From Prorocentrum cordatum (Eukaryota), in assembly GCA_963575745.1 (NCBI GenBank), contig CAUYUJ010000295.1, positions 62,001 through 115,705 of the forward strand: a stretch of DNA of 53,705 nucleotides, written 5' to 3'. Positions within the stretch are counted from its first letter, which is position 1. Each line of letters begins with the position of its first letter. Under the pieces are notes generated by a model. That model made no database searches and was not told the DNA's origin. It saw nothing but the letters and a program-made list of their open reading frames with translations. Both the position numbers and the translations under genes were made by a program. Shown here in pieces: positions 1-38,330 of this stretch.

Positions 1-185
1 GTTGGGGGGGGTAAGGGTTCCACATGTGTTTTTTCGATATTTCCCGGACCCCCCCCCACTGGAAATCGAGGGTAAATCTGAGCCTTCGGGTTGGGTTGGG
101 GTGGTTTGGTGGGTGGTGATAATTGTCTGTATGCTTTTCTCCTTCCTGAACAACAGGGTCACCGAGAGCAGAAGGTCGGCGGCGG

Positions 186-9150: not shown

Positions 9151-9349
9151 TAGGGGACCAAAAAGTGACATAAACATAAAAACTCGGAGGTCCGCGCGGA
9201 TTTCTCGGATCGGCGCTGGACCCCCCTCCCTGGCGCGCGGAGCGCGCCAGGGGCGGCGCCGGAGGCGCCGCCGGGGGGCCCCAGCGCCGATCCGAGAAAT
9301 CCGCGCGGACCTCCGAGTTTTTATGTTTATGACACTTTTTGGTCCCCTA
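9151..9349. mobile_element. MITE family B (~195 bp near-perfect hairpin, TA flanks, Tc1/mariner-like); other copies 10081-10280 and 15099-15298, degenerate at ~14815-14905, 18030-18200, 24215-24480, 25060-25245
   Basis: Long TIR GGGGACCAAAAAGTGACATAAACATAAAAACTCGGAGGTCCGCGCGGATTTCTCGGATCGGCGCTGG and its complement. Confidence 0.82.
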
Positions 9350-10309
9350 TTAGGGCCCGGCCCCATCTTCGAACCACCGATCTCTTGCCTCGGCGCTGCA
9401 GCTCCCCGACCTCGGCGCGCGGAGCGCGCCCGGCAGGGGCGGCGCCAGAGGCGCTGCTGGGGGCGCCCAGCGCCGAGGCATAAGAGTTCAGTAGGGCCTG
9501 TCCCCCTACAGGGGGATTTTCAAAGGAAAATAAAAATTACTCACAAAATATTCAAACATGGTCAAACAAAAAAACAGACTCGGAAAATAGTCCCCCGACT
9601 ATTTTTGGACTATTTTTGAATATTCCCCCTGTAGAGGGACAGGCCCGACTTAACAATAGAGAGACCCGCGCGGAACGCCGACGATTTCTGCCTTCATGCC
9701 GGCTTTCCTTCTTCGAGATCACCGGCGCCGCGCCCCTGCCTGGGGAAACCAAGAAAGGCACCGATGCCGCTGCTCCGCGGACCTCTCTCCTGGGGTGCGT
9801 TCTCTGACCAGGGTTTCGGGGCGAATCCAGCGGTGGCGACGACGGAGGCCCAGGAGGCCCAAAAAGCAGAAAAAACGAGGGCAGGGTACCCAAACATACA
9901 ACGCATTTGAAAAATCAAAACGGAAATTTCTCGCTACTTTCGGCCTCTAGGGGCCCTCGCTGGGCCCCGGGACCGTCAACAAACGACTCGGGCTGCACAA
10001 ACCGGTGCTGGGGGATGCGTCGAGCCTTCCAGGGGGACCCCGCGTCGAAACAATCACGACACGTCGGATCTCTGGGCAGATAGGGGAACAAAAAGTGACA
10101 TAAACATAAAAACTCGGGGGTCCGCGCGGATTTCTCGGATCGGCGCTGGGGCCCCCCTGACGGCGCCTCTGGCGCCGCCCCTGGCGCGCTCCGCGCGCCA
10201 GGGAGGGGGGTCAAGCGCCGATCCGAGAAAGCCGCGCGGACCTCCGAGTTTTAAGCTTATGCCACTTCTTGTTCCCCCTAGCAGCGGCACGGGTACCCTT
10301 TCCTCCCCT

Positions 10310-10510
10310 GACTGCCGGCGCCCCTGGCCGCGCCCCTGCCGGCGCGGCCGGCGCGGCCAGCGCGCCCGCGGCCGCGGCCGCGCGCCGCGCCCGCGGGGGC
10401 GGCGGCGGGCGGCGCGGCTCCGAGGCAGCGCAGGTCGAGCGCGGCGCCGCAGCGGCAGGCGGAGAAGGCCGCGCGCTCGAGCGGCGCCTGGCGAGCGGCG
10501 GCGTCCCTGC
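10310..10510 (-). CDS. TOP3A: Probable TOP3A exon 17 ([29 protein letters not shown]... RG-rich)
   Basis: CACAG|G acceptor in the correct phase with a GGCAG junction repeat. CxCG looks like the start of a zinc ribbon. The 3' end is uncertain. Confidence 0.6.
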
Positions 10511-10635: not shown

Positions 10636-11806
10636 CCGTCTCCCTCGGGCTTCGAAGTGCTGAGATGTTGGGGGTCTGGATGGAGATGGGGATGGGGATG
10701 GGGATCGGCGAAACGATGCTGAGCCTGGAGGCAGAGAAGGCCCCAGACCCCTCGCGCTGCGGAAAAGTCACGACGGGAAGCTTCTCGCTATCTTCGGCCT
10801 CATGGGGACCCTCACCGGTCCTCGGAAGGGTCAACAAAACGACTCGGGATGAAGAGCCTGCCCAAGGGAATCGGTCGAGACCTCTCGGGGTCGACGTCAT
10901 GAAAAAATCATGGCGTCGGGGGTCTGGCGAAGGCCGTGGCCACGACCAGTCTCCTGAGCACAAGAACGCACCGATGCCGATCTGGGCCACCGTCCGTCCC
11001 GGTCACCGTCGACCCGTGGATCGCCCACGGCGGCGGCCGGCGTGGACCATGACCAAGGTGTCGGCGTCGACGAGATCCTGCGGCGTTTTGGTCATGGTCG
11101 GCGTGCTTCTGCCCCCCCCGGCTGCCCTCGAAGTGCTGCGAGAGGGCGGCGTCGAGCGCGGGGGCGCTGCGCACCAGCGCGGCGTAGCAGCGCTGGGTGG
11201 CGTCCACGCACCAGCGCAGGAACTCGTCTCGCCTAGGTGGAAGATCGTCGCGGGGGATGCTCTGGGGGCAGCGACAGCGACCCAAGCCACCCCCACACCA
11301 ACCACATCACATCATATGCTTTCGAAACATTCAAGAAACATGTAAAAATCATCCTGGTGGGAGTGGGGGTGGGCAGTTCCCTCTCTCGGGACAGGGGGCC
11401 ATAGGTGGATGCCGAGGGGATGGGCTGCAGGTGCCCTTCTAGGTAGATCGAGGGGTCCCGCCTCAGCCGTGGCTAGTCTGCTAACTCACTGGGCTAAGTG
11501 GGCGCCGCCCACTTAAGAAAATTATATGGTTTCCCAGTATAATGTAACATTTAACGCGCTGGTACGCAAGCTTATGTCATGTACTCCATATCAGCTGCCA
11601 GTCCCACTATCGCCGCAACAAGCACCGCGGTGATCAAAACAGTGCCAACGGGGGGATGTGTCAGTCGGCATCGAACTGTAACATCGGATCGGATCGGAAC
11701 TTGCATCGGATCAGGTCGCATCGGCGCGTAGCCGGACAATCGAATCCGATCGGGTGCGCCAAGATGCACAACCACGCCATACAAACAGCGGTCCGCATGG
11801 AACTCT

Positions 11807-11854
<48 letters not shown>

Positions 11855-12417
11855 GCACCTCTCCGAGGGAGTAGAGCTCAGAGGCGATTAATGCGCACGC
11901 GTCCGCGATTTTTCTGGGCGTTTCGCTCGGGACATCCTCGAAATTCTGAAAATCGGTGGCACCCCTCACGCAGATCGTGACGTCAGGGTCCAAAAACACA
12001 TGGGAATTTCAACATTTTAACATAAACCTTCAAAAACACATTGTGACATTCTCAGGGAATGGCGGTTTCGCTTGGGAATGGCGGTTTCGCTTGAAAAATC
12101 CTTCCAAAATCGAGCCCCAGACCCCGCCTCGGAGCCTCCTGGGGGCCTCCTGGAACCTCCTGGGGCCTCCTGGGGCTTTCTGAACCTTCTGGCACCCCAG
12201 ACCCCGCCTCGGAGCCTCCTGGGGGTGTCCTGAAACCTCCTGGGGCCTCCTGGGGCCTCCTGCGGCCTCCTGGAGCCTCTTGGGGCCTCCTGAAGCCTCC
12301 TGGGGTCTCCTGGGGCCTCCTGAGGCCGCCTGGGGCCTCCTGGGGCCTCCTGGGGCTTCAGAACTACATGCACACAGAGACACAAATCACGCCCAACACA
12401 TCACACGCTAGACAAAC

Positions 12418-12467
<50 letters not shown>

Positions 12468-15400
12468 CAACACACAAAAGCACGCACCACACAAAGCATA
12501 CATCACACACACACACACACGCACAACACTCACAATCCTGGGGCCTCCTGGAGCCTCTTCTGGTATCCAAGTCGGGCCTCCTGAGGCTTCCTGGGGGGCC
12601 CTGGTACACACATCGCAAGGTGTGGCAACCCCACTTGCGCTCGAGTGCGACTTCGATGTTGCATTTCACACCTGCTTCAAACGCCCCTTCAGTTTTTTGT
12701 ATGAGCCTGGGCACACACGTGCCACTTGTGTACACATATCTATAAATATATGCATATATATACACATATATATATATGAATATATATATATGTATATATA
12801 AAGACCGAGCCATATTGAGCCGGCCGGAATCGATGCCGACTCGGATCGATTGGATCGGAATGGGCCCTGCTCAGCTCGGCCCGGCCTGTCTCCGAAACCC
12901 CGAGCCGCCCCGAGACGTGGCCAAGAGCTCCGCGAGGCTCCAGCAAGAGCTCCTCAGGGAATTGCCCAGCGCGCGCGGGGCCCACCCGCCAGAAGCGAGC
13001 AAGGAGTTCGCTCAAGAGTTCTGGGAGTTCCCGACGCAGCGACTGCACTGTAGGACTGCCGAGGCTTCGCTTGGTGCCCGTCTGTGGGCGCCTCGTGCGC
13101 TGGGCTGGTCCGCCGAAGTTCCGCCCGGTGCCCGCCCGCGGGGTCCCTTCGTGGGTGCCTCGTCCGCTCGGTGGGTTGGCCGACGTTTCGCCTGGTGCCC
13201 GCCGTGGGAGCCTCGTGGGCGGCTGGTGTGCTGGGCTGGCCGCATCATTTGCACCACACAGCTGTTGCCACCAAGCTTGAGCCACGTAGCTCACACCACG
13301 TAGCCAAACGCGGCCCAACGTGCGCCACACATGTTGCAGCGCGTAGTTGACGCCACGTGGTGGTTTGCACAGCATGGCTTGCACATGAGCGAAAGAGGAT
13401 ACGCCGCGCAGTTTGCTTGCATCACACAGTTGACCTGCACCGAACAAAACTTCACCACATAGCTTAAACCACCGCGCAACTTACACCACGTGGTTTGCAC
13501 CACAGAACTTCCACCACACGGCTCGCACAGCCACAGCGCAGTGACTTGCTGCTTGGGGTCCTGGCTGGCAGAGGGACTCGCGCTGACCGAACGTGACGCG
13601 GCAGGAAGCCGCGCCCATAGCGCCGACGCGCCTTGCCCAGGTCAGGCCACATGCACCGAATTGGGGGGGAGGGAGGGGGCGGGGAGGGCCCCCACGACCC
13701 CGGCCAGCACATGGGAGCGCGCGGCAGCGGGATGGTGGGGGGCGTTGCCTGCGATTCGAACTCCAACGGGTGCCTCCGCTGGCCGCGCGCGATCTGGCAC
13801 ATGCCGTCCTCCATCTTGGCTCTCAGCGTCGGCTTCGAGAGGTCGAGGCCCTCCTCCAGCGCGAAACGCTGGTAGCCCTCGACCAGGGCCTGGCCCAGGG
13901 GCGTCGGCTCCAGCCGCCCCTGTGCGTTCTTCAGCACGTACTTGCGCGTCTGAATCTTCTCGATGCTCGGGGGCTGCCACGGGCGTCCCTGGCCCAGGGT
14001 GTCCCTGGCTTCCCGCTGCACCTCGGAACGCCTGGGGCCCTCTGGGCCTCGAGGGGGGTGCTCGTGGAGGCCGTGGGGGCACACCCTGGGCCCGGGACAC
14101 CTCTGGCGGCGCCCGAGATGTGGTCGTGCATGGTGGCGTCGGTGCCGATGCCCGTGCGATCCATGAGGGCGATGAGGTCCGCCTCGCTCAGCAGCGGCGG
14201 CGGCTGCGTGCGCGACTCGAACATCTCGAGGGCCGAGAACGCCAGCAGCTCGTGGAGCTGGAACTGCGGCAGCGGGTCGTTCACCTCAGGGGGCGACGTT
14301 CGGGCCGGCACCGGCAGAGGGGCAGGAACATCGAGCCGGACTCGGCAACACATCGGCGATAGAGCGTCGACAAGCCACGGCTGGATCCGCCCGAGATTCC
14401 TCTTAGAATGCACCCTGGGAGAGGTCAGGGGAAAGATGTTCGACCCTAAGTCGGCGGCGTGCGAGGGGGGAAGTGAGAAGGAGAAGGCCTTCTCAGCAGG
14501 CGACGGGACTTCTCAGAACCCCTCGCGCCTTCAGAGAAATGTTCCGTGTCTTCGGGGAAGTCCCAGAACACTTCTCAGAAGGCCACGGGACTTCCAAGCC
14601 TTCCGAAAAAGGCCTTCTCTTTCTCACTTCCCCCCCCGGCTCGCCGCCGATAACAACAGGCACCCCGACAAGCCAAGCCTCCTGGCAAACGCACCTGACC
14701 TGAGTGAAGGATCGAACGGGGCAGGGCTGTTTGGTAAACGCCCAGGGCTGCCTACTAAACGCCGACTGTGGAGGTCGGTGTTTCTTTTTCTCGCTAGGCT
14801 AACTAGAAGAATAACAAAACAACATAAACATAAACTTTTGGCGCGCCACGCTGGTCCAAGAAATCCGCGCGGAGCGCCACAAGTTTATGTTTATAGTTTT
14901 TTTTTCTTCTGCGACTAACGCTGTCCCTGATCACCCAGTTCGAGTACGGGTACACCTCGAGCCAGCCGCGGTCCTGACTGCCTACCAGACCACCCCAACC
15001 CGAACCGCAGACCCGAACTTCGGGTTCGGGGGGGGGGTACGGGTTCCAGATGCGTCTTTTCACAAGGTTCCCCGACCTGGATATGGACAAGGACATGGAT
15101 AGAGGAACAAAAAGTGGCATAAACATAAAAACTCTGAGGTCCGCGCGTATTTCTCGGATCGGCGCTGGACCCCCCTCCCTGGCGCGTGGGGCGCGCCAGG
15201 GGCGGCACCGGAGACGCCGCCAGGGGGGCCCAGCGCGGATCCGAGAAATCCGCGCGGACCTCCGAGTTTTTATGCTTGTGTCACTTTTTGTTCCCCCAAT
15301 GGAGGGCCAATCGGGGCCCTCGGGTTGGGCTGTGGGTTTGGACGCCCAAAATGGGTACGGAAAGAATGGGTACAATGCCCAGCAACAAATGTTGTCTCAA

Positions 15401-18400
15401 ACCAACAGCGGCCACTGTTGGGCAGGCGGCCGTCTGTCTCGAATGAACGCAGGCCGCGGCGGCGCGGACAGCGAGTCCTGTCCAAAATGAACAGGAACTG
15501 CTGTTGGGCATTGTACCCATTCTTTCCCTACCCATTTCGGGCGTCCAGAGTGGTGGGTGGGATTCCCCATATTTCCTGGGTTTCTGTCTTCCCCCCCACT
15601 GCCCATATTTTCCCAAATTTTCTGGGGAGTCGACGATTCATTGTGTCTGTGTGATTTTTTCTCCCTCCTGAAATCGGGGCCCTCGGGTTGGGCTGTGGGG
15701 TGGCCCGGTGGGCGGCGAGGTCCAGCACCACCAGGCCGGCGACGCCGAAAGCCTCCTCGGCCAGCACGGCCTCCACCTCCGTGCGGGCGCCCCGGGCGTC
15801 CGGCGAGCAGCACGCGAGGAAGTGCCGCGCCACCTGCCGTGGCCGCTCACGGGGGGCCTCCAGCGTGAGGTCGGCCGCGTCCCCCGACAGGCGGACTGTG
15901 GGCGAAAAATGAAATCGAGCAAAACGAAAAAAAGAACCATCCCCACAAGTGGTGGAGCAAGGATACTTTGTCACTATTCTGGAATATTCCTCCCGTGGAG
16001 GGACGTGCCCGACTTAAGTCCAGTGACATCATGCTGGCTCCTGCTAACCGACGCTAACCGACGCTAGTCGACGCTGAACCGGTGCTGCTCGACGCAAGAG
16101 CGGCGCTCTCTCGCCGACTGCCCGACGCCAGCGCACGCGGATGCGCACTCGTAACGCTGGAGCTGCGAGGACGTGCCGGGCTCCCACGAGGTGCCAGCGG
16201 GGCGCCACCAGCTCGTAGACCCGCCACTCCTCCTGGTTCAGCTCGCCCTGCTGCACGCAGCGCACGGGGTGGACGGGCCGGAGAAGAACACAGCAAGCGG
16301 CACGAGCACGAGCTGTCGGAGGCCCGCGCGGAGTTCTGGGCTCCGCGCCGGAGCCTCCCCCCTCCCCGGCGCGAGGGGCGCGCTCACTAGGCTTAAGTCG
16401 GGCCTGTCCTCCTACAGGGGGGTTTTGGACGAAAAACCAAAGATACCCCACAAAAGGCCCCCAAATTGTCAAAAGGTACTAAAAACAGGTCGTCGTTTCG
16501 AACTTTCCTTCCGTAGAGGGGCACGCCCGACTTACCACTAGGGGAGGGGGCGCAGCGCCCAGCCCAAAGTCCGCGCGGTCCTCCGAGAGTTTGCGCTGGG
16601 GCAGTTTTCTTCTCCTCCGATGGGCGGGTGCGCGTGGTCGTTGTGGCTGCCCGCCCGGGGCTGCGTGAAGCGGCCGCCGTCGACCAGCGACCGGGCGTGG
16701 TCGCCCCACGCCCCCGAGGCCACCTGCAGCCTCACCAGGCCACGCACGTCTATCGTGTCGGTGAAGCTGTCCGTCTCCGTCCTCTCTTGAGCAGGGGCCG
16801 ACCGTCCAGGCATTTCGGGCCTACCACGAGATGTTCCTAGAACCCAGAAAGGGTCGAAAAACAAAAGCCATGTTCTTAGAACATAAACCCGGTGTGTTAA
16901 CACGAGCCAGTCCCAGCCAGACATGTTCTAAGAACATTTCGTCGAAACCACCAAAGGTTCTTAGAACATTATCTGGCAGGCCTATAGGCGAGCCAGGACG
17001 CTTCGTCACTGCTTGACTCTCGGCTGCGCGCCGACAGGGGAAGCTCGGGAGCTCCGGGCTCGAGATGCGACGTTTTCGGGAACTTCCGTCGGCTCTCGGC
17101 GGAGTTCCAGCCTCGGGATTTGTTCCAGCGGCTGCGGGTCAGAGCGTTTCCGGGGTGCCCGGCTCGTTCCGAATGGCCACGGGAGAGCCGAGGCATGGCG
17201 CAAAAACCAGCAGGCGTCCGAGAGAGGGGCAGCCCTCTCAAAGGCGGCGGGGCTTCTCTGGAGCCCTCCAGCCTTCTGACACGCCGCCTGTGGCTCTGGA
17301 AGAACTGCGCAACGTTCAACCGACGCCCTATCCCCATGGGGGTGGCCTGGGCCCCACTGGCCAACATACCCCCCTAGATGGGGATGTGGTCTGTTTCCCT
17401 TCGGGCTTCGAGGGGTATACTGTCCTCAACTGGGGTGCTGAGATGGTGGGGTCTGGATAACTAGGGTCAGGTCGGGCGTGTCCCCCTACAGGCGGATTTG
17501 GGGCGACAACATTAAAAATACGCAAACAATGCCCCACAATAATCCAACAAAATGAGAGCATCGTCCCCTGACTATTTCCCAAAAATAATTCAGAAAATAA
17601 TCAGAACTTCGTCCCTGAACTATTTTTAAACTATTTTTTGAATATTCCTCCTGTAGCGGGAAAGGCCCGACTTAAAATTAGGGATGGGGGCTCTAAGGGT
17701 CGGCTAAACGACACTACAGAGCCCCTGGAAGGCCTCCGGGAAGGCCAGAGGCCCGCCGAGCCCTCTGGGGAGGCACGCCCCCTCGGCCTTCCCTTAGCTC
17801 GGGCGTGTCCCCCTACAAGGGGATTTTGAGCGACAAACCAAAAATACCACCAAACATACCCCCAAATGCCTAAGAAGTGCTAGCAAACATCGTCCCCGAC
17901 TATGTCTTAAGCATTTCTCGATATCCCCCCTGCAGAGCGACAGGCCCGACTTCAGCTTCCCCCCCAGGCCGCGCGCCGATCCTCGGGTAGGAGATGAGCC
18001 CCCGCTGGTAGAGCGCCTCTCGGAGGAGGGCGACTGCGTGAACAGAAACTCTCCCAGCTCCGCACGGGCTTCCTGCATCGGCGCTGGGCCCCCCCGGGGG
18101 CGCCTCTGGCCCCTGGCGCGCTCCGCGCTCCAGGGGAGGTGGGGCCAGCGCCGATCCAAGAAGCCCGCGCGGAGCTTCGACCGTGCACGATTGGACATGT
18201 TCCCAACTAGCGTGTCGCTGAACGGGGTTCTGAGGAAGGGAACCGCAGAAGAGTCCTACAGGGGAGGCTAAGAACCGGAGATCGATTGCCCGGGCAGCCG
18301 TTTCGCCCGAGACTTCTTCAAGAAACGTGCTGCTCTCGCTAGAATGCCAGCTGTACAGTAGCAGCCCGACCACAAGAAACCTTCCCCAAGAAATCGAACC

Positions 18401-20479
18401 CTGAAACCTCAGGACCTCCATTGATTTTTGGTGTGGGAGCGTCATGCTCTCCGTGGCAGAACCATCGAAACCCAAGAAACCCAGGGCACCCTGGAGGCAA
18501 GCAGGGTCGTTCTTGGCATGGGTCTCCACTGCATCCGGGGCTCTTGCTAGATTGCTGTTCGCCTCAGCACCTCGGCGACGTGCATGCAGCGTGCCGGCGC
18601 GATGCGCAGCTTCGAGGCGGACAGCTTGCCGAGCTCCACCGTGTTGAGGGGCAGTGGCCTCCACCGCGTCTTTGGCTCCTCCAGGACCCGCACCACGCGG
18701 GCACCGCCGGGGGAGGCCTCAACGCAGAGCTCGTAGAGTACGAGCACCGCCAGCTGGTCGAACAATCGCCCGCGGCGCCAAGCGAATCTCAGCGTCTGCC
18801 CAGACCTCGAGGGAGCCTTTCCCCCCTCGAGTATTCCCCCCCTCCCCCTCGGATGGGGTCTGGCATTGGTTTCCCTCGGAGTCCGCTTGTTTCTCCTCCA
18901 GAGGGATGTGACTTCCCCTCGAGCCTTTTTGCTCCCCCTCTGTATAGGCCTCCTAGATGGGGTCGGCGAAGACGGGGTCGGAGGATCTCGCCGCATCGCC
19001 GATACATCAGCGATGCATCGCCAATACATTGGCCCCGCACTGGCGACGTCGGAGACACATCGGCGACGTCGTCGTGAAGAAAATCGGGCCCCGCATCGAG
19101 CCGCACCGTCGATGCATCGGCGATGCGGCGCGATCCTCCGACCCCATCTAGGGGGGGCGAGCCAGGGAGGCGCTCCGGCTCCTTGTGGGCCCACTGGGGT
19201 TAGGTCGGGCATGTCCTCCTACAGGAAGACTTTCAAAGAAACGTGAAAAGAAGGAGCAAACAAAAACCTGGCGAAGGCCGCGATCGCGTGTATAATCTTC
19301 GGTGGGTTTCGTATGGGGGGCGCGAAATGTGTGAGGGTGTCTCCCTCTGTGGGCCACGAGGCGATGCCTGCTTTGCAATACGCCATGCAGGGTTCCGCAG
19401 CTCCGCAGGTCGCTCCACCCAGGTGGCCTGCGGGGCCGCGAAACGCTGACCTGGGTGGGGGAGACGCATGCGAACACTGCCACTGGGGCCTCAAGTGGAG
19501 ATCTCTGCGGGGCCACGAAACGCTGTTCTGGGTGGGGGGGACGCATGCGAACACCGCCACCGAGGCCTTAGGTGGAGCTCCCTGTGGGGCCACGAAACGC
19601 TGTCTTTGGACGGGGAGACGCACGCGAACACCGCCACAAGGGCCGTAGGTGGAGCTCGATGTGAGGCCGCGAAGCGCTGTCCTGGGCGGGGGGGACGCAT
19701 GCGAACACCGCCACTGGGACCTTAGGTGAAGCTCCCTATGGGGCCACGAAACGCTGCCCTGGGTGGGCCACTCGGGCCGTAGGTGGAGCTCCCTGTGGGG
19801 CCACGAATCGCTGTCCTGGGAGGGGGGAAAGCATGCGAACACCGCCACTGGGGCCGTAGGTGGAGCTCCCTGTGGGGCCGCGAAACGCTGTCCTGGGTGG
19901 GGGAGACGCATGCGAACACCGCCACAAGGGCCGCAGGTGGAGCTCCCTGTGGGGCCGCGAAACGCTGTCCTGGGTCGAGAAAAAGCGCATGCGAACACCG
20001 CCACTTGGACCTTAGGTGGAGCTCTCTGTGGGGCCACGAAGCGCTGTCCTGGGCGGGGGAGACGCATGCGAACACCGCCACTGGGACCTTAGTTGGAGCT
20101 CTCTGTGGGACCACGAAACGCTGTCCTGGGTGGGGGAGACGCATGCGAACACTGCCACTGGGGCCTCAAGTGGAGATCTCTGTGGGGCCACGAAGCGCTG
20201 TCCTGGGTGGGGGAGACGCATGCGAACGCCGCCACTGGGGCCTCAAGTGGAGCTCCCTGTGGGGCCAGCGAAACGCTGTCCTGGGTGGGGGAAACGCATG
20301 CGAACACCGCCACTAGGGCCTTAGGTGGGGTTCCCTATGGGGCCGCGAAGCCCTGTGATGGTTGGGGGAAACGCATGCGCACACCGCCATTGAGGCCTTC
20401 GATGGGGCTACCTGTGGGGCCACGAAACGTGTAAGGGGTGTGGCGGAATTGGTGGCGATGATGGTGACGATAACGGTGG

Positions 20480-20562
<83 letters not shown>

Positions 20563-20570
20563 ATGATTAC

Positions 20571-20616
<46 letters not shown>

Positions 20617-23600
20617 TGGATGATGTGGATGATGTGGATGCTGATGATGATGATGATGATTATGATTATTATGATGATGATGATGATGATGATGATGCTG
20701 ATTATGATGATGATGATGATGACGATGACAGGGCGACGATGATGATGCTGATGATGATGATGAGGATGATGATGATGATGATGATGATGGTGGTGATGCT
20801 GATGATGATGCTGATGCTGATGATGATGACGACGACGACGAGGACATGCGCAGGGAAGAGCTAGGGAAGGGAGGAGGGAGGAGGGGGAGGAGGAAGGAAG
20901 GAAAAAAGGAAGGAAGGAACGCGGGGACAGTCTTGAAAACGAGGACCCAACACTTCAGGATGGTTGGGAAAAGCCTGAAAACAAAATAGCACGGAACATC
21001 GTCCCCAGGCTATTTTTCACTATTCTCGAACCTTCCTCCTGTGGAGGGACATGCCCGACTGAACAATACAGCCCCAAACACATGGAAATGCAGTGGATTC
21101 CGCGCACCCCGCACGCACTTCGTGCCCCAAGTAGAGGGCAGAACATCCATCCCCATAATAGTAACCCCGACAAGCGAAGCCGTTTAGTAAACGCCGATTG
21201 ACGGGGTCTGGGTGGTTTCCTCCCTTGACCAAGAGTCTGAGCTGGCCCCCTGAGCGGCTCATGGGAGCATCGTTTGAGCACAACCATCACGCACTTCGTC
21301 CCCGTTAGATCTCTCTGGAGGCCCTCAACGAGGGCCACATGGGCCCCGAAGGGTTCTGAGCTGGCCTTTCAAGACAGCTCAGTGGGGCCTGATTTCGGCT
21401 CACCCCTAATGCACTTTGTGTCCCACAAACCTCCCGAGGCCATCAGCTGGCCCTCAAGACAGCCGAATGGATCCATATTTCGACACACCCCTCACGCACT
21501 TTGTGCTTTAAGGACCCCCCAGGGCTCTCAGCTGGTCCACCAAGATGGCTCAAGGGAGCCCCATTTCGCCACACCTCTCACGCGTTTCGTGCCAGATGCA
21601 CACGCTCCTGTGAGTTCGGCAGATCCCTCACGCACACCGTGGCCTGTGGAACCTCGGAGGCCCTCCACGGGCCCGCAAGACGGCTGTAATGGATGCGCAT
21701 GTCGGCGCACGCCTCACGCGCGTCTTGCCCCCTGGACCCCCAGCACTGGCCCTCGGCCGGCCCTCCCGGAGTGCCCGACGGGACTTTCCCTTCGGCGCAG
21801 GTCCCTCGCGCACTGCGTGGCCCATGGCGGCCTCGACGCTGAACCTCCCTGACTGGCACGCGGAGCGCGCCCGTGTCGGCGCGAGGAGGCGCCGCGGAGG
21901 GGGCCCAGTGCCGACCCAGGAGATCCGCGCGGACCCTCCTGACTACCCACCTGACCACCCCAACCCAACCCGAAGACCCGAATTTCGGGTTGGGGGGGGT
22001 ACGGGTTCCATACGTGCTTTTTCAGTGTTCCCCGACCCCCCCCCCACACTGGAAATGGAGGGCAAACTGAGGCCTTCGGGTTGGGTTGGGGTGGTTTGGT
22101 GGGTGGTGACCTCCGAGCAATGACGGTGCTGTTTCTGTTGCAGCCGCTCGTCCTGCGACGTGCTGTGCCGCTTTCGACCCCCGGCCTCTGCAGCTCGGCC
22201 CGCATGGACCAGAAGGGCTCGGGGCGGAAGCGCCGGATGCGGTCCCAGCGCTCCACGACGAAGCCGAGCGTGGGGAACTGGCAGGGGCCGTAGCTCAGGA
22301 TCTCCCTGCCCGGGGGAGGCCCAACAATATCCAACTCGCCGACGCGCCAGGACCACCAAGGAGCCCAAGCAGGACGACAGGGGCACGAGGGCGGTGCCGG
22401 GTGAGGATAGATCTAGGTCGGGCATGTCCCCCTACAGGCGGATTTTGGGCGGAAAAGAAAAAAGACTCTAAAAATATTCAAAACACAAGCAAAATAGTCC
22501 AAACAATCGTCCCCCGACTATGTTTTGACTACTTTTGAACCTCCCTCCTGTAGAGGGACAGGCCCGACTTAAGGATAGATCGGGGATCTCTGCGAGCTGG
22601 CGGGTCCGGCGGAGGGCATCGGCCGCTGCGGCCGCTCCAGGGAGCTCCCGAATGCTGTGGTGCGCTCCAGATGGCTCTGGAGCGACTTCCCCTCATCTTA
22701 GGCGTAGGTCGGGCCTGTCCCCTTACAGGCGGAATTTGAATGAAAAATCAAAAACCCCTCAAATACTCCGAAAATATTCAAACATGGTATAAACAAATGG
22801 TCCCCGTATCATCTTTGGACTGTTCTGGAATATCCCCCCTGTAGAGAGGGACAGGCCCGACTTCTTAAACAAATAGCAGAACAAATGCTCCAGCATACCC
22901 AAAACCAGTCCGAACATCGCCCCCGGGCCTGCCTGACCAGGATCGCTGCGTGCACCCTCCTGCCTCGGCCAGGGCCCCGACAGGCCGAGCCCGAGCCCCG
23001 CATCGGCGCGGCCCGAGGCGGTGAGGCGCACCTCATTGTTCTCCGAGAGCCGACGGCGCCCGCACGCGCAGAGTCGTGAACGAGCGCGGCAGGAGGCATA
23101 GGCTTGGGTCGGGCAGGTCCTCCGACAGGCGGAAACTGGAGGACAGGTAACAAAAAAATAGTCCAACAATGTTCAAACGTAGTCGAGCATTTGTCCCCTG
23201 ACTCTGGTTTTTGACTCGGGGATGGACAGACCCCCCTTTAGCAAAACGTGGTTTAGTGAAAACGACCTGAGGCCCAAAACTGGCGGGCGCAAGCCTGGAA
23301 AATAACGGCCACGGCGCCCTCTCGAGATCCGAAAACGGACAATTCACTAATCGACGTGTCACTGTTGGGGGTTCTGTCCACCCCCGATTGACTATGTTCG
23401 ACTGTTCCTCCCATAGAGGGGCACGCCCGACTTCACCCTCGACGCAACCTTCTCAGCGGTAATTTTTGTACGAGCCGGACCGCTCCGCGACGGCCCCGCG
23501 GCCCGAAGCCCTGGGCGGCCACGCCCAGTGCAGCGACCATCGCAGGGGGTGCCCAGGTCAGGTCGGGCGCGTCCCCCTACAGGCGGATTTTGGAGGAACG

Positions 23601-26600
23601 ATTAGGGATAGTCACTAGTCCAAAAACATGCAGAAAGGTCAAAAAGTGTAAGAAAAAACATCGTCCCACAATTAGTTGTGAACTATCTTTTGAGATTCCT
23701 CGTGTAGAGGGACAAGCCCGACTTGATGCTAAGAAGACAGGAAGCCGATGATCTGATGCTGACCCAGACCCCTCGCGCTGTGAAAAATCACGACGGGAGG
23801 TTCCTCGCTATTTTCGGCCCCGGCGGGCCCTTACCTGCCCTCGGGACCGTCAAAAAACGACTCAGGATGAAAAGCCGGTCCCGGGGCAAGGGTCCAGACC
23901 TCGAGGGTTCGCGTCATGAAAAAATCATGACGTCGAGGTCTGGGGAAGAAGGTGGGTTACACATGGCCCAATCTGGCTCAAGTGGGTTACAAGTGCCCTG
24001 AGTGGGGGATCTGTCACTCAACAAAACTCGCGGAGCCCGCTTAGTCCGGATCCTTACCCATCCTAGACAACTACACGACACCAATGACCCGCATATAATC
24101 CAGGTCAGCTCCGATACAACCCGCCTCAGATAACCTGTCCCCCTCAGAAACCCACGGCGATCTCAGTGTGAACAGAAATCGGCGCGGGGATCTCAGTGGT
24201 TGACGTCCCGAGGAAGTAACAACTGCGTGTTACAAACTTTCGACGGTGGATCGGCGCGGATCGGCGCTGGAGACCCCTCCCTGGCGCGCGGGGCGGGCCA
24301 GGGGCGGCGCCGGAGGAGACGCCAAGGGGCTCCAGGTCTGTGCGGATTTCGTGGGTCGGCGCTGGAGCTCCTCTCTGACGCGCGGATCGGGCCAGGGGCG
24401 GCGCTGGAGGAGACGCCAAGGGGTTCCAGCGCCGATCCACGGAATCCGCGCGGAGCTCCGAAAAGTTATGGTTATGCAATCAGTTCTCCCTCTTCGATCA
24501 CAGAGGTTGCCGTCCGCTTGCCATCGCTCCGGCGTCCATTCCTCGTAATTGCACGGTTCGGTGTCGTGCGTGGCTTCTCCCGTTCTCTCGACTTGAAGAT
24601 CCACGATGCTCCAATATGGTTCAGCTGTTCTGGAGCTGGCCTTAGGTAGGGCATGTCCTCCTACAGGCGGATTCCGGACGAACAATTTATCCCACCCCCA
24701 GACATGCTCCAAGAATGTTCAACAATACTAAAAAACATGGCCCCCAGGCTATCTCTCAAAACTATTCCTGAATAGTCCTCCTGTAGAGGGACACGCTCGA
24801 CTTCGCGCTGGCCTCGCCGGCAGGAGTGCACACGCCCGAGCGATGCCAGAGGTGCCGCGGCCTGCCCAGCTCCGGGAACATCGGCTGGTAGCGCAGGGAC
24901 ATCCAGCGCGTGAACGCCGCGCCGCAGCGCAGGTCGATCTCCGACCGCGCCTCCACGGCGTCGGCCAGCCGCGGGTCCGGGGCCCTCAGCGTGGCGCACG
25001 CCCGCAGGAGGTCCTCGCGCGTGAGCGCGGAGAAGACGGCGCGGAACACCTCCGAGGAGGCAAGCAATGCATAGAAACCCACGCTTTGGGGAGGCCCGTG
25101 CAGGCATCCGGGGATCGGCGTTGGATCTCCCCTCCCTGGCGCGCGGAGCGCGCAAGTGGCGGCGCCGGAGGCGGCGCCCGGGGACTCCAGCGCCGATGCG
25201 AGGAACCTGCGCCGACCTCCAAAAGTCTGTGTGTATGCTCATGTTGAGGTCGGGCATGTCCCCCTGCAGGCGAACCTTGAAGGGAAAGTGCAAGAAAGTC
25301 AATCCAAACTCGAGCATAGTCAACATAAGAGCACGCGCAACCGTCCCCAACTCATTTTCTAACCATTCTCGAGTACTCCTCCCGTGGAGGGGCATGCCCG
25401 ACTTGAGCTCATGCAGCTCCGTTCTTCGTCGGCGCCTGCAGGCGGCCGCCCGCCGCCTGCTGACAGACGTCGATCACCTCGAAGGCGATCGCCTCGCCCT
25501 CGCGGTCGCAGTCCAGCCAGAGCACCAGCCAGTCCGCCTGGTGAGCGTTTTCTTCTTCGGCGTTTCGACATTGGGCGCCAGGGGGGGGCGAGGGGGGGGT
25601 CCTGGCTCCAGACCTCTGCTTAGTGCGGCTGTTTGGATCAATGCGTCCCTCGCGGGAGAGACCCCACCTGCTCGGAACAAGCGCCCAAAACAGCCAAGAT
25701 CCACTCCGTGGGGGTGGGGGGAGGGGGGGGGCGAGGGCCCGCGCCGATCGGCAAAACAATGAATAAAAAACCGCTCACCTGGCGGGACAACTGCTTCAAG
25801 TTGCGGTCGATGTCCTCCAAGGCCGGGCTGACGGCGATGTTGCTCAACGGTGATGTTGAGAAAACCAAAGAGTAGGACATCACGAACCACACACTTTCTT
25901 ACACGTTCAATCTGCGAGCGGATCGAGCGTACACGACACAGCGAATTGTAGGAAAGCGCAAGCCACGCATTCCCACCACACCGAAACCTACACCGCCGTT
26001 AGCTACATCGCCATTCACCCGTCTACGGGTCCTGGCAGTCGGGGAGGATGTGGCGCTGCATCGGAGCGGTAAAGAGGCTCGCGGGCGTGCAGGACGACCA
26101 GGACTTAAGCTCGGGCCCGAAGTCGTGCCCGATGAGGTGGCCGCGCACAGCGCTCACGGTCATGCGGCAGTTCGTTCCCCTCAGATTGAAGGGGAACTCC
26201 TGCAAGGATGCACACAATCTGATGAGATAGTATGTCGATGGACAAGATATCTCTTTTCCATCTTGAGCCAAAATGGGTGCACGGAGGAGGGTGTCAGAAT
26301 CACTCCTCCTCGGGCCTGGCCGCCAACCCGGCCAGGCACGACCTACGTCGTACGCGGGCGCGCCCAAGCCGACGCGCCCATCTCATCAGCCAGGCTGCGG
26401 CCATGCCGCGAGCCCCTCACTCCGTCCGGCGCGATCATACCGCCGCCGGCGGAACCTCATCCAGCCCCACAGGTAGCGGAGCATGGATTCGATCCACTCC
26501 ATCACTTGAAGTCCTTCTGAGTCAAACTCGGTGTCCGATCCCAGATGTTGAGCGTCGCCATGTGTCTCCTCAAAAGGGATCCACCCACTCTCTTGGTCAG

Positions 26601-29600
26601 CACGTCCGCGACATTGTTCTTACCAGGAACCGCGGCGATCGAGAGGTCGCCCTTACCCACGCGCTCCTGGATCCACAAGTATCGTGATTGAACATGTCGC
26701 ATCTTCCCGAGACCCCGCCGTTGGACGTGGCCCCGGGCCGCCGATGAATCCGAGGCGAGCTCTACCTTCAGGTCCAGCCCCCAGTCCGCGAAGAGGCTGT
26801 GAAGGCCCAGGCCCACGCTCCCGCCCTTCACCAGGGCGTAGTACTCGCTCTCTCCGCTGCTCAAAGAAACCGTCGACTGCAGATTACTGCCATGCTTGAC
26901 GACATGATGCCCCAGCATCGCCACGAAGCCTCCGGTGCTCTTCCGGGTGACTGCGCAGCCCGCATGATCGGAGTCCACGTACACCCGGATCTTGTCGAAC
27001 ATCTTCTGCTCCGTGAAAACCGTCACCGTGCTAGGATGCCGCTTGAGGTAGCGGCCAACCCTCTTGAGCATGAGCCAACTCGCCTCCGTTGGCGTCTGCA
27101 TGGACCTAGCGAGCGTCTTTGATGCCTCTGCCAAGTCCAGCCTGTCCTGAGACAGGTAGGCCACCCTCATGGTGAGGGATCGGAAGCGCGAAGCTTCCGC
27201 TGCTCCCAACGCCGCCGACTTCGCATCCATCATCTGCTTGTCGGCGCTGCGCTTCTCCATCGGCGTGTCCACGCCGTTGGCCTTGCTGAGACCCAACTCG
27301 TCGATCACGATCTCCGCGTGCCGCTTGTCCGGCTCGATCATCGCATGCCGGCAGGGCCGGCCACCGCCAGGCGGAACTCCCGCACTGACCTCGATGACCC
27401 GATTCAGGAAGACCGCCTGCTTGTCATCGCCCTCGTCGAAGCCTAGGTTCGCAGTCTTCTTGAACTCGTACTTCTTGCCCAGCGTGGCCTCGAAGCTGTC
27501 GATGTCCTGCTGCTGAGCCAGCACCGCGAAGTCGTCGCCGTGCCCCAGCAGCCTCGTCTCGTCCACCTCCTTGTAGAAGACCGCTGGGCACGACACGCCC
27601 GCCTTGTAGCCGTGTTCCTCCAGCAGCTCCGTGTAGTCGCCCTGCCAGATCTTGCTGGCGTCCTGCGTGCCGTACCAGGACTTGAGGAGTAGGCCGCACT
27701 TGTCCTCGCCGTACTCCTTGCGACTCTCCTCCTCCAGCTCTACGAAGATCCTCCGCTGCGCCTTCCCGTAGAAGTGCGCCCTGCTGATGTCGAAGAAGCC
27801 GATCTTGAAATTGCCCGGCTTCCTGCCCTTCTTGCGAAGCGACTCCTGAATGTGGAGCGGTGCTTCCCGCGTCCACGTGACCATCAGCGAGACCAGCGAC
27901 CGCGTGGCCTCCAGAGGAGGCATGGCCGAGAAGACCTCGGACGCCTCCAGCTGCTCGTCGGGGCGCTTCTTCGCCTTGATCTCCTTCACGACGAGCCTGA
28001 TCCTGTAGTTGGGCCTCTCCGCGTCACCCTTGTTCGTGTCGACCCACTTGAGTGGGATGGGCGGACGCCCAGTCTCGGCGAAAGCCTGAGACCTCGGGAC
28101 GATCTCGATCAGCTCCTGCTTCTTGACCCACTCGCGCTCGACCGCGCGAGCCTGGGCCACAAGGCCCGCCTCCAGGTAGCCGCCATTGACGTCGTCCCAG
28201 TAACTCGTCCAGTCCCCGGGCGGCACTGCCGCGTCCACAGGGACTGGGCCCGACTGCTGCACCTGGGCGGTGCTGAGCTCTCCCACGTCATTCAGCGTGT
28301 CCTTGAGCTCCTCCAGCACCGCCTCTACCAACTTCGGTGGATAGACCTTCGCGAACCGCGCGATGCCGCCCACGAGCGTGATGTGGCGATGCCATTCCGC
28401 GCGGCCGTCCACATTGCTGCAAGTGCCCTGCAGCCTCCGGGCTAAGCCTGGATGGTTGGTGACCCATCCGGTCTCCTTGCGCACGAACTCCTCCTGACCA
28501 CTGCGTGGGTTCGTGAGCTTCATGCCCCACCGACACATGGGGCCTTTGACCGTGAAGACTCCTGGATGCGCGACCAGCTCCTTGACGATGTCCTCATTCC
28601 ACGATCGCGCGCTCCAGGGATGCTCATGCAGGAAGTACCTGCCTGGCTTCCTGAGCTGACGCCAGTAGGCGTCGACTGCCACCTTCAGGTGGTGTCTGGC
28701 CTCCTCCATCTCAGCCGCCTCCTGCTCATCGGTCCTGAACTTGGCGCTCAGGCCCCTCAGCAAGCTGAACTTCTCGCATGGAGGGGACCCCGTGAGCAGG
28801 ATGGGATCCATCCGCTCCTGCTGCTTCTCGAGCTCCTTGACATCCTCGGGGCGCCGCAAGTCCCACGGCGCCCCGTCCTCCTTGAGTTCCTCCAGGTCCG
28901 CCGCGAAGCCCGGGCGCAGCTGAAATTCCGCTGCCCGAGCCGAGAACCGATGTGGCGAGTACACCTCGGCCACGTCCACGGCGCCCAGCTGCAACGCCGA
29001 TAGGGCGATGCCATCCACTTCTTCGTCGGCGATGTCCACGCCGACGCTGGCCCAATGGCCGCTGACCTGTTCGCGAACGAGCGGGAGCAACTCCGCCTTC
29101 GCTCTCGTCAGCACTCCGAGCTCAACCAGCTCGATCGACGCCATATCGAGGGCGAGCACCCGCATGTGCCTCCCCTCACTGGCGTTCCACACGACTGCCA
29201 CTCCAGCTGGCAGCTGAGGTCCTTCCGCTGGCGCCGGCTGCGCCGCGAGATCCTCCATGTCCACCGGTACCGGCACGTCTGCCGGCTGTGGATCACCGCG
29301 CTCGAGGGCCTCCGGCACGTCATCCGGGGCCACCTCTGCCAAGCGCTTCAGCCGCGACCTGGCTGCGGTCATGTCGACATCCGCGGCGGCCTCTGCCGCT
29401 CGCGCCGCTCCCGAACTGGAGCTCGCTCCTCCTGAAGGAGCCGCCGCGCCGAAGCCCGGTGCTACCGGCTGGCTCTCTCGCATGCGCGCCGCTGTGGCTG
29501 CCACGGCTGGCGCTGCTGCCGATCGGGCCGCGGCCGGCGCGGCCGATGCCGCTGCCGCCGCTGCCACCGGCTCGGTGATCCTCCGAGCCGTCTTCGGCGG

Positions 29601-32600
29601 AGGGGTCCCTGCCGCGGCCGCTGCCGCTGGTCGGACTCTGGCCTCTTGGCCCTGCCTCCGTTCTCGATACTGGCCGGTCCTTTCCCGGCCTGCCTCCTCC
29701 GCGTCCATCGCTTCGAAGATCCTCTTGCTGCACACCGCGTTGTGCGCGTGGCCAGCCAGCACCCGGCCGTGCTTGGCGATCGAGACGCACCCTGGGCATC
29801 CCGGCGTTGCGCCCAGCCGCTCGACGTCCGCCTTGAGGACGTACATCCTCCTCGGCGCCTGCGGCTGCGGCGACACCACCACAATTGGTGGCGGTCCGAC
29901 CTCTCCAGGTCCGACGATGGCCCGCGGCGCGCTTGCCGCACGCGGAGCCACGTCCCACGGCAGGCCCTTCAGGCCATCCCAGCCCGCCGTGATCCACTTC
30001 TCGCTCTGCGGCAGGCTGCGAAAGCCGACCGCCTTCTTCGCGCCGTCGCTCGTGATGACCATCATCGAGCCGTCGCGCGGGTGGTGGCCGATGTAGCGAG
30101 CCTCCACCATCTGTTCCTCCAGCGCGTTCTTCCTCGCGCGCTCCCCGGCGAACCGCGCCATCAAGCGCTCGCCGAAGAGCGGGACCGGCTTCCTCCACTG
30201 CCGTCCCGTGAGCCGCTGGAGAGCGGTCTTGCCATCCTGGCCGCGCCGGTATCGGTTGATTACCGATGCGGCGTGCTCCGGCAGGTGCGCTAGCACCGGG
30301 TGCTTGTCCTCCACCTTGACGCCCAGCTTGGACTCCAGGTCCATCTTGAGCGCCCGCACCTGCTTCTTAATCTCGCGCACCGTGACCTCGATCTCCCCAT
30401 TGGCCTGATGATCGGCCGGTGCCGACTCCTGGGGAATGGCCTCGAGGCCAGGAACCTCCTCCACCGCACGCCTCTTGACCAACAGGATCGCCGGCTCGCC
30501 GTCGGACTTGTTGACGATCTTCCTGTAGCCCAGGATCCGCAAGAAGCGTGCGAAGAACTTGATGGCGCAGGCGTCGTCGCCCTTCTTCTCCACGAATGTC
30601 GCTGCCATCATCTTCGAGCGCCGATCCCTAAGTACCAGCATCGGCATGGTGTCCGCGTCGTCCTGGCCCATGAAGGCGTAGTCGGACGAGACCACCGGCA
30701 CCGCCGTCTCGTCGTCCTCCGGTGCGCGGAGATGCGGCTGGCCTTGGCCCTTTGCCGCAATACACACGCGACACCAGCTGCGATAAGTCGCGTGTCCCAT
30801 CGCCTCGTGTTCGTCGATCTCCCTCTGAGAGGGCTCATGAGGTGCCTTCAGCACTCTCGGGCGAGCCTCCTCCTCGCCCTCGTCGGCCTGCTGTCCATCA
30901 GGAGCAGCTGGCAAAGCGTCGGCCGCAGCAGCTGCCGCTGGCTGAAAACCCGGCGGTCTCACGTCGGAAGGTCCCGACCCCGCCGCTGCCGCCCCCGCAG
31001 CCGATGCCGCCGGGGGCCGTGGTATTAAGTCCTCCAGTGGGCTTACGCCGAGGGCTGCCTCCTGGGGACTGTCTTCTCGAGGATCTCCAGCAGCTCCTCC
31101 TTCGACTTGCCGCTGAGGAGCTCCACTAGCTCGGACTTCGACTTCGCCGAAAGTCCCTCCTCGAGAGGAGCAACCGAGCCATGTTGGCCCTTCTTGAGGT
31201 AGAAGTTGTAGACGCCCTGCTCGCGATAGACCGGCAGCATCTGGTGCTTCGCCGCCTTCGCCTCCTTCTCGAGCATGCCTACCACGCGCTTGCCGATTGG
31301 GCTCTTCTCGTGGAATATCCAGCCGCCATTGCGACCCAGGAATGAACACTGTCCAGCTCCTGCTGCCTGCCCCACCGAGATCAACGGCTTGTGCACGTTC
31401 GTCACGCGTCCCTTGAGTGCTCGTAGCACTCCGTACTCGTCCTCCGCCTTGAGCTGCAAGCTGCCCTCGTCCGGGACGAGCTCACCACTGGCCGTACGAT
31501 ACGTGCTGCCGTTGCCCTCCATTCCCGTCGGCGGCGCGAAGCTCCGAGGGAATGCTGAGATAGCTGCACCGCTGTCCCAGTTGAACTTCATCCAGTCGTC
31601 CTGCGCGAAGGGGGAGAGGTCGACCGCCGCTATGCCGCGGCCGCTGCCGCTGGCGAGCTCCAGGCAGTCCAAGCTGCCCATGTCCAGAGCGGCGACCTCC
31701 GCTTCAGGCTCCTCCTCCAGGCTGCCTGCCGCCTTGCCGCCGGCCTTGCCGCCGCGGCTACCGACTTTACCACCAGCGCTTGCCCCCGTTGCGGATCCAG
31801 TTCCAGCCCTCGTACTCGATCCCTGCTCTTTCCTCCAGCAGTCGGATGCCTTGTGGCCCCATCTCTCGCAGTTCCGACAGTAGCCGTCGAAGCGCCCGCT
31901 GGTGCTTCGAGGTGCCGTGTGCCCTGAACCACGGCCCGAACCCGTCGGGGATGTGCGGGAGCCTGAGTATGATCCGTTCGTCGATTTGCTCTTCCCCTTC
32001 GGCTCCTGAGTCTTGCCTTTCCCTTTGCTCTTGCCGTCCTTGCCCTTGCCTTTGCCTTTGCCTTTCGGGGCTCCGAACGATCCGACGTCCATGTCGTCCG
32101 GATGATGCGCCCGCGCACGGATCGATGGCTCCTTGATCTTCACGCCGGTCCAAGCCTCTACGATCGTCATTACCTCGTTCAGACTGTCCTGGAACGTTAC
32201 GAGCCGATGCTTGTTGAGTACGAGGTGGTTCTCGATGTCCTGAGGCACGAGCATCTCGAGGGCCGCCATCTTGATATCCTCCGGCAGCTCGGCCAGACCA
32301 TCTTCTCCTTGGCGGCGTTCGTACCTGCCTATCTGCTGGATCCACTTCTCTAAGGCGGACCCCAGCTCGTCCGCGCTGCACTTCGGAGGCGAGATGATCG
32401 ACCTCAGGATCAGCCTCTTCCTCGGGCCTGTCGTCGGATCCCACCTGCGGTGGAGCTTCCGCCAGGCTTCGAGACCGTTCCCGTCGGGGGCGCCCGTCAC
32501 GAGGTCGTTGCTCTCGCTGCCGTCCGCCGTCGTGCTGAGCAGCGCCGCGTACAGCTGGTTGACCTTGGTCTCCAGCTCTGGAACTCCGTCGTGCACCGCC

Positions 32601-37534: not shown

Positions 37535-38330
37535 CCTTTGGTGGCTTGCCCAAGAAATCCTCACCTCACAGGGCGGGCTGGGCGGGACAAGCGTGCGACC
37601 ACACACCTGTCCTAGAGCCAAAATGTCAACGGACCGTGCTATGCATCATGCTGCCGGTCCGCATGCTGCTACTCTATGCTGCCCTACTCGCGTTCAACTG
37701 GCACTGAAGCATGAGTAGGTTAGCACTGCCAAAAGCACAAGAACACAGGGAACCGTTTTCCGGTCACCTGGGCGTTTCCCCGCGGATCCGCACATTTTCG
37801 GTGTACCGGTCCATCCGTGCATTCTGGGGCAGAGAGGCTGCACTCTTCACACATCCCTGCAACCCCTCCTCCCACTCACCCCCACCCGCAGCAGGGCTTC
37901 GCTGTGACTGCGCACACGCGCGTGCTTCACCACACCGGCGCATCAGCTGCACCGCCCAAGGAAAAGGCTACGGGGAGGGGAGGGTGCAGGGGAGGAGCCT
38001 CAGACGCAACGAAAAAATGTCACGAATTCCGGCCCCAAAATGCGATGACACGGAGGCCGAGGACGGACGATGATGTAACCAGCACCTTTTGCTACATAAC
38101 ATCCTGGTGCAATCTACATTGTCTCATAAACTGCGGATTGGGAGTGTGCGCCACCGCGCGCTCCCCCTCTTTGGGCCCGGCTCCGCGCCCACCACGGGGT
38201 CGCGCCGTTCCAGAGGGAGCAAAGAGGTAAGCCGGTAGCGGCGGCGCCACGTCCGCCGGCGGCCCCAAGGGGAGGCGCACACCGCCAACCCCCAGAACCG
38301 GGCACCAAGGCCCTACCGAATACCCCCCGC

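Follow-up and report, generated by a model that had tools for sequence, protein, structure and literature searches.

Hairpin introns with arbitrary borders have been documented at large scale only in Amoebophrya, the euglenids and a tunicate. In Amoebophrya A25 and A120, more than 60% of the introns are non-canonical, and 11-30% of those carry inverted repeats of 8-20 nucleotides (nt) together with repeats of 3-5 nt at their borders (PMC7789003). The machinery that removes the hairpin introns of Amoebophrya and of the euglenids is unknown (PMC7789003, PMC11282704). In this report, we analyse a 53,705-nt stretch of Prorocentrum cordatum DNA (assembly GCA_963575745.1, contig CAUYUJ010000295.1, positions 62,001 to 115,705; hereafter the window), in which a DNA topoisomerase III gene is interrupted, within a conserved motif, by a 155-nt insert with hairpin-forming ends. 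With a probability of about 0.7, this insert would be a real intron derived from a miniature inverted-repeat transposable element (MITE), removed from the RNA in the manner of the Amoebophrya introners, but lying in a gene that resembles those of core dinoflagellates. It is best filed as an already-known, Amoebophrya-like type of intron that is new in a different dinoflagellate setting.

For the free-living dinoflagellates, what is known is of another kind. Their introner elements have been counted by a repeat pattern inside annotated introns, with gene models that allow GT, GC and GA donors (PMC10666404; similarly PMC12584245). For Symbiodiniaceae and Polarella, the available parts of two reviews give only GC-AG and GA-AG (PMC11453091, PMC11282704), and in one Symbiodinium species some donors start with C (PMC5177918). 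No report of RNA-supported hairpin introns other than G[T/C/A]-AG in core dinoflagellates was found in the literature covered, which includes Roy et al. as preprint text (10.1101/2020.10.14.339549) and in which PMC5177918 comes nearest.

The 155-nt insert and the motif that it interrupts

The features on which the argument depends are the following, with all positions given in the window.

11067..35862, minus strand: DNA topoisomerase III gene, at least 14 exons; extent from tblastn homology (P0005/P0003) and from the Pfam domains Toprim and Topoisom_bac
14117..14280, minus strand: exon upstream of the insert; RNA contig pieces; positions 296-348 of Pfam Topoisom_bac (PF01131)
13772..13961, minus strand: exon downstream of the insert; RNA contig pieces; PF01131 positions 349-405
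13962..14116, minus strand: 155-nt intervening sequence, which slides by 0 to +4 nt (to 13966-14120); RNA joint 13961->14117, border options by script
14117..14120 (upstream copy) and 13962-13965 (downstream copy), minus strand: CATC direct repeat, read on the coding strand; sequence and script
14078..14117, minus strand: 5' arm of the inverted repeat, 40 nt, 83% complementary to the 3' arm; fold
13966..14005, minus strand: 3' arm of the inverted repeat, 40 nt, 83% complementary; fold and duplex test

The limits of the gene, from 35862 down to 11067, were set by tblastn with P0005, a transcriptome-derived homologue of 949 amino acids, and pieces of Toprim and Topoisom_bac are found on minus-strand open reading frames (ORFs) spread between about 25.7 and 13.7 kb. 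The upstream exon is read in the frame 14117-14287(-), which carries DATMHDHI, and the downstream exon, with which human TOP3A (chain 4cgy_A) aligns, in the frame 13700-13961(-), whose first residues are EKIQTRKY. The insert splits the PF01131 match precisely between profile positions 348 and 349, so that its removal gives a contiguous profile and restores the frame, and relatives of the gene (P0003, L001 and L002) run uninterrupted through ...HDHI[KQ]KIQ.... Since frames and profile fit only if the 155 nt are removed, exactly 155 nt must go; kept in the RNA, the insert would shift the frame and lead to a stop near 13931, as read from the ORF list.

On the coding strand, the layout is [CATC]TCGGG...CCCGAG/[CATC], where the slash marks the junction. 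The stem extends from the final base of the upstream CATC to the position right before the downstream one, which places both candidate cut sites 0-4 nt from the base of the helix. The predicted fold of 13950-14130(-) reaches -104.4 kcal/mol, against -77.6 +/- 4.6 kcal/mol for shuffled sequences (z -5.8), with none of 200 shuffles as good, and the duplex between the terminal 50 nt is exceptional as well (z -6.8, 0/200 shuffles). A search with Rfam over 13800-16800 gave sub-threshold look-alikes of miRNAs and snoRNAs only, none of them on this hairpin or on that of the 347-nt intron described below.

These observations confirm the descriptive part of the original prediction, made from the letters alone. 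It had placed the two halves of the motif in different frames, as the sequence and the profile boundary now agree, and had set between them an insert flanked by CATC, a repeat that a script derived anew. The inverted repeat of about 40 bp that it had seen at the insert ends corresponds to the arms listed above. It had further named five junctions able to restore the motif, and the same set was obtained by script: TC..TC, CT..AT, TC..CA, AT..GC and CA..AG, none of the five being a G[T/C/A]..AG reading. One detail was wrong, as the joined protein has a single I at the junction, where two had been supposed.

U12-type introns have AT..AC or GT..AG termini and a conserved U12 5' splice-site box. 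The AT option of the insert begins ATCTCGGG and ends in GC, for which reason splicing of the U12 type (AT..AC) was rejected. Canonical splicing of a nested, stwintron-like arrangement was discarded by reasoning, as no option of the 155-nt insert starts with G and all options of the 347-nt intron lack an AG end. A bulge-helix-bulge cut finds no support in the sequence or in the folds.

RNA evidence at the insert

RNA from four public runs was mapped on 13300-25900, as raw reads for one of them (X24) and as contig sets for the other three (X1, X5 and X17). The joint 13961->14117, which skips 155 nt and leaves 4 nt that fit both sides, is present in all four. Five raw X24 reads cross it, each from a different start, and their shorter flank reaches 42 nt; X1, X5 and X17 contribute one contig each, for which the shorter flank measures 164 nt. 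No contig of these three sets covers the insert, since the depth of the bin 13721-14141 is wholly explained by the spliced contigs and one contig that ends at 13750. The mRNA of every run lacks exactly the 155 nt that the protein motif asks to be lost. A wider search with 60 words sampled from 13700-14290 gave a list of 24 public runs, with 20 rows from eight studies holding part of the region; the best of these 20 contained 0.48 of the sampled words, and words lying in exons only make up 0.52 of all, which indicates that those runs hold exons only.

The joined form comes from three exon haplotypes: that of the window, shared by X1 and X5; that of X24, with 13923C; and that of X17, with 13866G and 13923C. 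Both polymorphisms fall in the exon downstream of the insert, where a reading by hand shows them to be synonymous changes at third codon positions. In all exon pieces listed, the contigs of X1 and X5 match the window without a difference. Moreover, the X5 contigs that lack both the 155 nt and the 347 nt of the second hairpin intron retain about 296 nt of a canonical intron, 15834-16208 (pieces 15827-15946 and 16033-16208), again with 0 differences. This identity over exons and retained intron means that the RNA comes from this locus or from a near-identical one.

Five further joints (16418->24649, 16812->16985, 18531->25247, 24291->25710 and 25731->13663) were not accepted as introns: each occurs in one run only, lies in repeats and has a shorter flank of 26 nt or less. 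In the last of these, eight X24 reads appear to go back by 12069 nt, between G-rich low-complexity tracts at 13663-13690 and 25711-25740 (GGGGGGAGGG...GGGCCC); the presence of such tracts at both places accounts for this backward joint, and a circular or tandem transcript is ruled out.

A second non-canonical intron and a related MITE family

The same gene contains a second hairpin intron without canonical borders, and the window holds MITE copies to which it can be compared.

16272..16618, minus strand: 347-nt intron, which slides by 0 to +2 nt (GG..TC, CG..GT or TC..CG); joint 16271->16619 in all four runs, options by script
9152..9347, no strand assigned: palindromic MITE, young copy of a family related to the 347-nt intron; flanking direct repeats of 4-5 nt
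10082-10277 and 15101-15297, no strand assigned: further palindromic MITE copies; flanking direct repeats of 4-5 nt

This intron is non-canonical in every reading, as none of its options has an AG end or is able to regain one. Its removal gives ...HAHPPI/HPVR..., the same as in homologues. It is flanked by GCCCATC and GCCCGTC, alike at six of seven positions, and the mRNA retains the A version, which places the junction within the last two shared bases. The intron as a whole is an extended, imperfect palindrome that encloses a second hairpin (fold z -2.8, 0/100 shuffles as good). The outer helix closes beside the repeats, and in the minimum free energy fold the exon flanks are paired and the junctions sit in an internal loop, an arrangement that could be due to chance.

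Many repeats of the window resemble parts of the 347-nt intron at about 75-81%, and from its sequence this intron is taken to be a diverged palindromic MITE related to these multi-copy elements. The three listed MITEs are about 196 nt long each, with the flanks TTAGG (9152-9347), GCAG (10082-10277) and [A]TGGA (15101-15297). The arms of the copy at 9152-9347 pair with one mismatch in about 68 nt, against about 75% pairing in the 347-nt intron and 83% in the 155-nt insert; taken together with the single unmatched position of the 7-nt flank repeat, this imperfect pairing of the arms suggests that neither insert is fresh. The ~196-nt MITEs themselves gather reads and contigs that stem from numerous other loci, with an X5 depth in the hundreds and many loose ends at 15234 and 15265.

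The canonical introns of the gene

The other RNA-supported introns of the gene serve as the measure against which both hairpin introns can be set.

25538-25778, 18017-18570 and 14285-14934, minus strand: GT..AG introns; RNA joints, script
15834-16208, minus strand: GT..AG intron; X17 contig pieces and sequence
25050-25435, 22306-24861 and 18806-22185, minus strand: GC..AG introns; RNA joints, script
16782-17981 and 14974-15722, minus strand: GA..AG introns; RNA joints, script
14974..15722, minus strand: the second of these GA..AG introns, 749 nt, used for comparison; GACC at both borders, inverted repeats near the ends, RNA joint

Border options were scripted for ten joints, and the eleventh intron (15834-16208) was worked out by hand from the sequence and the pieces of the X17 contig. 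Nine of the eleven introns examined read G[T/C/A]..AG/G, and the two without such a reading are those of 155 and 347 nt; GC-AG and GA-AG introns make up five of the eleven. Repeated borders of 2-8 nt are found in all nine canonical introns, and also in all ten of the scripted ones. The comparison intron 14974-15722 has the layout [GACC]TCGCC...CAGTCAG/[GACC], which matches that of the 155-nt insert, and its ends form a duplex that none of 200 shuffles equals (z -3.4).

Two smaller observations concern these introns. A micro-exon of 39 nt, 14931-14969(-), lies between the neighbouring GT..AG and GA..AG introns in the contigs of three runs. The intron 15834-16208 is spliced in an X17 contig and partly retained in X5 (pieces 15719-15946 and 16033-16271), where both hairpin introns are already gone.

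The interpretive part of the original prediction can now be judged, and it is partly supported, being largely borne out at the RNA level. Its expectation that RNA across the site would lack the insert agrees with the restored motif in the mRNA of all four runs, and the locus, whose silence would have told against it, yields RNA in every one. The GC-AG alternative that it had mentioned (DATIIEK) exists in the sequence, as seen by eye, but none of the joints listed for the four runs, beyond which there are four more, corresponds to it. That the other introns of the gene use G[TCA]-AG is true of nine of the eleven supported by RNA and fails for the 347-nt intron; this second non-canonical hairpin intron, with its relation to a multi-copy MITE family, strengthens the view that had been taken of the first. 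Descent from a transposon, a cut guided by the hairpin and the presence of the insert in the DNA of the cells that made the RNA are the parts that we infer.

A proposed mechanism and its alternatives

The events that we propose would begin with the insertion of a small, non-autonomous DNA transposon with terminal inverted repeats into a coding exon, where it would have duplicated the 4-nt target CATC. In the pre-mRNA, the two arms would pair into a stem of about 40 bp that brings both CATC copies side by side. The segment between the copies would then be excised and the exons joined, so that one copy and the original frame remain, in a process independent of the G[T/C/A]...AG signals borne by the other introns of the gene. 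The design itself, with a 5' repeat copy, an element TCG...AG and a 3' repeat copy, is that of the dinoflagellate introners. As the duplicated target starts with C, CA..AG would be the most economical reading. The 347-nt intron, with no usable AG or G at its ends, is removed equally precisely, which indicates that the process tolerates fully non-canonical borders, as in Amoebophrya. In this scheme, the cells sampled as RNA would carry the insert, the stem would be what guides the cut, and the cutting might be the work of a relaxed spliceosome or of another set of enzymes.

Several points weigh against this reading. Neither an unspliced read nor an unspliced contig over the 155-nt insert was seen, and depth is shallow, with about five X24 reads at the joint. 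A precise empty site looks the same as precise splicing, and the search of public runs yielded no DNA run, none of the runs holding at least half of the sampled words. As no further copy of the 155-nt element occurs within the 53.7-kb window, its transposon origin would be argued for by the terminal inverted repeats and the direct repeat. The evidence, finally, covers a single gene, the window having offered no other cellular one. One alternative is an insertion polymorphism or a second copy of the gene, in which the RNA would come from an allele, a strain or a very recent duplicate without the two MITEs and the junction would be the empty site. The joined form is indeed what a pre-insertion site with one repeat copy looks like, the insert is uncovered by RNA in the three contig sets, and duplicated genes are numerous in dinoflagellate genomes (PMC10666404). 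We nevertheless consider this explanation unlikely: the identity of the X1 and X5 exon pieces and of the ~296-nt retained intron of X5 to the window excludes a diverged paralogue, the same RNA form is given by three haplotypes, and two independent frame-breaking inserts would be required in an otherwise intact gene. Both inserts also look old, by their imperfect arms and, in the 347-nt intron, by the unmatched base of its flank repeat, although neither the identity nor these signs of age amount to proof.

Less probable by far is an artefact of reverse transcription, in which the mRNA would keep the hairpin and the reverse transcriptase would jump between the repeat copies at the base of the stem. 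Such template switching classically occurs where a short repeat adjoins a stable hairpin (PMC2923612, PMC10275267), and it mimics non-canonical splicing (PMC2923612); this too counts against an intron at a locus where a stem of -104 kcal/mol lies directly between 4-nt repeats. However, one exact junction, and no other form, was found in four libraries of different studies. The 347-nt junction shares only 2 nt, and its RNA has the upstream A variant, where a jump should leave the downstream G. Retention of the insert would, moreover, truncate a conserved enzyme, yet the haplotype differences of the downstream exon are synonymous only. The slightest chance of all is given to an erroneous base in the assembly: if the upstream repeat truly started with G, a GATC/CATC flank would make the insert an ordinary GA..AG introner. 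One base change would suffice, and the rest of the layout is that of a standard introner with a 4-nt duplication. The error, however, must hit exactly that base, and about three errors of the kind would be required to make the 347-nt intron canonical, so this explanation is possible for the 155-nt intron only. A MITE-derived intron removed from the RNA is thus the reading that we retain for the comparisons below.

Comparison with known systems

Like the RNA-validated introner elements of Amoebophrya, the 155-nt intron has no fixed terminal dinucleotides and a hairpin formed by the pairing of its ends (PMC7789003), and it shares with them a direct repeat of 3-5 nt over the borders (CATC here), a putative MITE-like origin and a similar length (averages of 120-240 nt there). 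It differs in its arms, of 40 nt here against 8-20 nt there (PMC7789003), and in its surroundings: GC-AG and GA-AG introns amount to 5/11 in this gene and to less than 3% in Amoebophrya (PMC11453091), and non-canonical introns to 2/11 against more than 60%. Elements of the Amoebophrya type belong to repeated families dispersed in the genome; the window contains a single copy of the 155-nt element.

The introner-like elements of Symbiodinium and Polarella have a matching layout, with a 4-nt duplication and an inverted-repeat element that ends at the 3' AG, the upstream copy starting the intron (10.1101/2020.10.14.339549). The topoisomerase gene holds an intron of exactly this type, GACC...AG/GACC, at 14974-15722. 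In contrast to that model, the duplication of the 155-nt insert is CATC, so that the intron would start with CA, and not GHNN (G[T/C/A]), and the 347-nt intron fits at neither end. A related feature is the identical repetition of 2-9 nt at both borders of dinoflagellate introns, present once in the mRNA (Mendez et al. 2015, PMC5032977); AG/G, which in the available text is always found in those repeats, is absent from the 155- and 347-nt introns.

The nonconventional introns of the euglenids, an unrelated lineage, resemble the 155-nt intron in their non-canonical borders, in the stem that joins the ends, in junction repeats similar to target-site duplications and in their suspected MITE origin (PMC11282704). 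The CAG/CTG pairing between positions +4..6 and -8..-6 that is usual in them (PMC11282704) is absent here in the two readings checked by eye, at shifts 0 and +4. They also leave as full-length circles and after the conventional introns. Reads of the excised intron were not encountered here, and the X5 contigs would show the opposite order, if that order is related to splicing at all. In Micromonas and Aureococcus, too, MITE-like elements with inverted and direct repeats become introns (PMC7789003, PMC11282704), but those introners carry or recruit canonical GT..AG borders, unlike both hairpin introns described here.

From this single gene, it may tentatively be generalized, at somewhat less than even odds, that free-living dinoflagellates with large genomes, and not the parasitic Amoebophrya alone, remove hairpin transposon inserts from pre-mRNA by means of the stem and a short repeat, ignoring the splice dinucleotides. 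If so, MITEs could insert into conserved coding sequence harmlessly, and the pathway would have existed already when syndinians and core dinoflagellates diverged, if it did not arise more than once. Nor would the tolerance for borders depend on a loss of spliceosome components such as that known from Amoebophrya. Gene models restricted to G[T/C/A]-AG would systematically break or distort such genes; annotation limited to GT, GC and GA donors (PMC10666404, PMC12584245) would mis-model this one, for example, by a GC..AG choice that loses three conserved residues. Two odd introns in one gene, beside a canonical introner of the same layout, make a simple testable case.

Relatives and further features of the window

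The mix of GT, GC and GA donors with AG/G acceptors, the repeated borders, the spliced-leader look-alikes and the GC..AG/G intron of a relative described next point to a dinoflagellate. A core dinoflagellate with a large genome, as opposed to Amoebophrya, would be indicated by the G+C content of 58-70%, by introns of up to 3.4 kb, by the sparsity of cellular genes beside two retroelement ORFs and by the five GC or GA donors among eleven introns.

Metagenome relatives of the gene amounted to 49 loci, and among the 14 examined the closest are 71-73% identical. Two of them, L001 and L002, read through both hairpin-intron sites without an intron. L002 is the nearest genomic relative (71% identical, 42-53% G+C) and contains a single GC..AG/G intron, at 475-670 of its own sequence. 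Its reading through both sites means that the 155- and 347-nt introns are not common to that relative, and it is likewise uninterrupted at the positions of six or more introns of the window, which would represent gains in the lineage of the window or losses in the relative.

The topoisomerase III gene is the one cellular gene found in the 53.7 kb, in the company of two retroelement ORFs; a scan of the 71 long ORFs outside it gave domain matches to reverse transcriptase (RVT_1) only. Inside the gene, an ORF of 1659 amino acids at 26505-31481(-) with an RVT_2 domain of the Ty1/copia type occupies an intron of about 9.3 kb, between the exons near 35525 and 26205. The 3' introns contain microsatellites of the (TA)n type at 10400-10500, 11780-11860 and 12690-12760, which give YIYIYI runs when translated.

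Beyond the gene, two identical 21-nt sequences at 37612-37632 and 45704-45724(-) resemble the dinoflagellate spliced leader with three mismatches each, where none would be expected by chance. The leader used as query agrees with the one given in PMC12584245. The two look-alikes lie about 8.1 kb apart and bracket the minus-strand ORFs 38334-40739, 40743-44063 (RVT_1) and 44023-45717, and together with these ORFs they may represent a retroelement, or a retroposed unit with a relic of the leader, present as a repeat.

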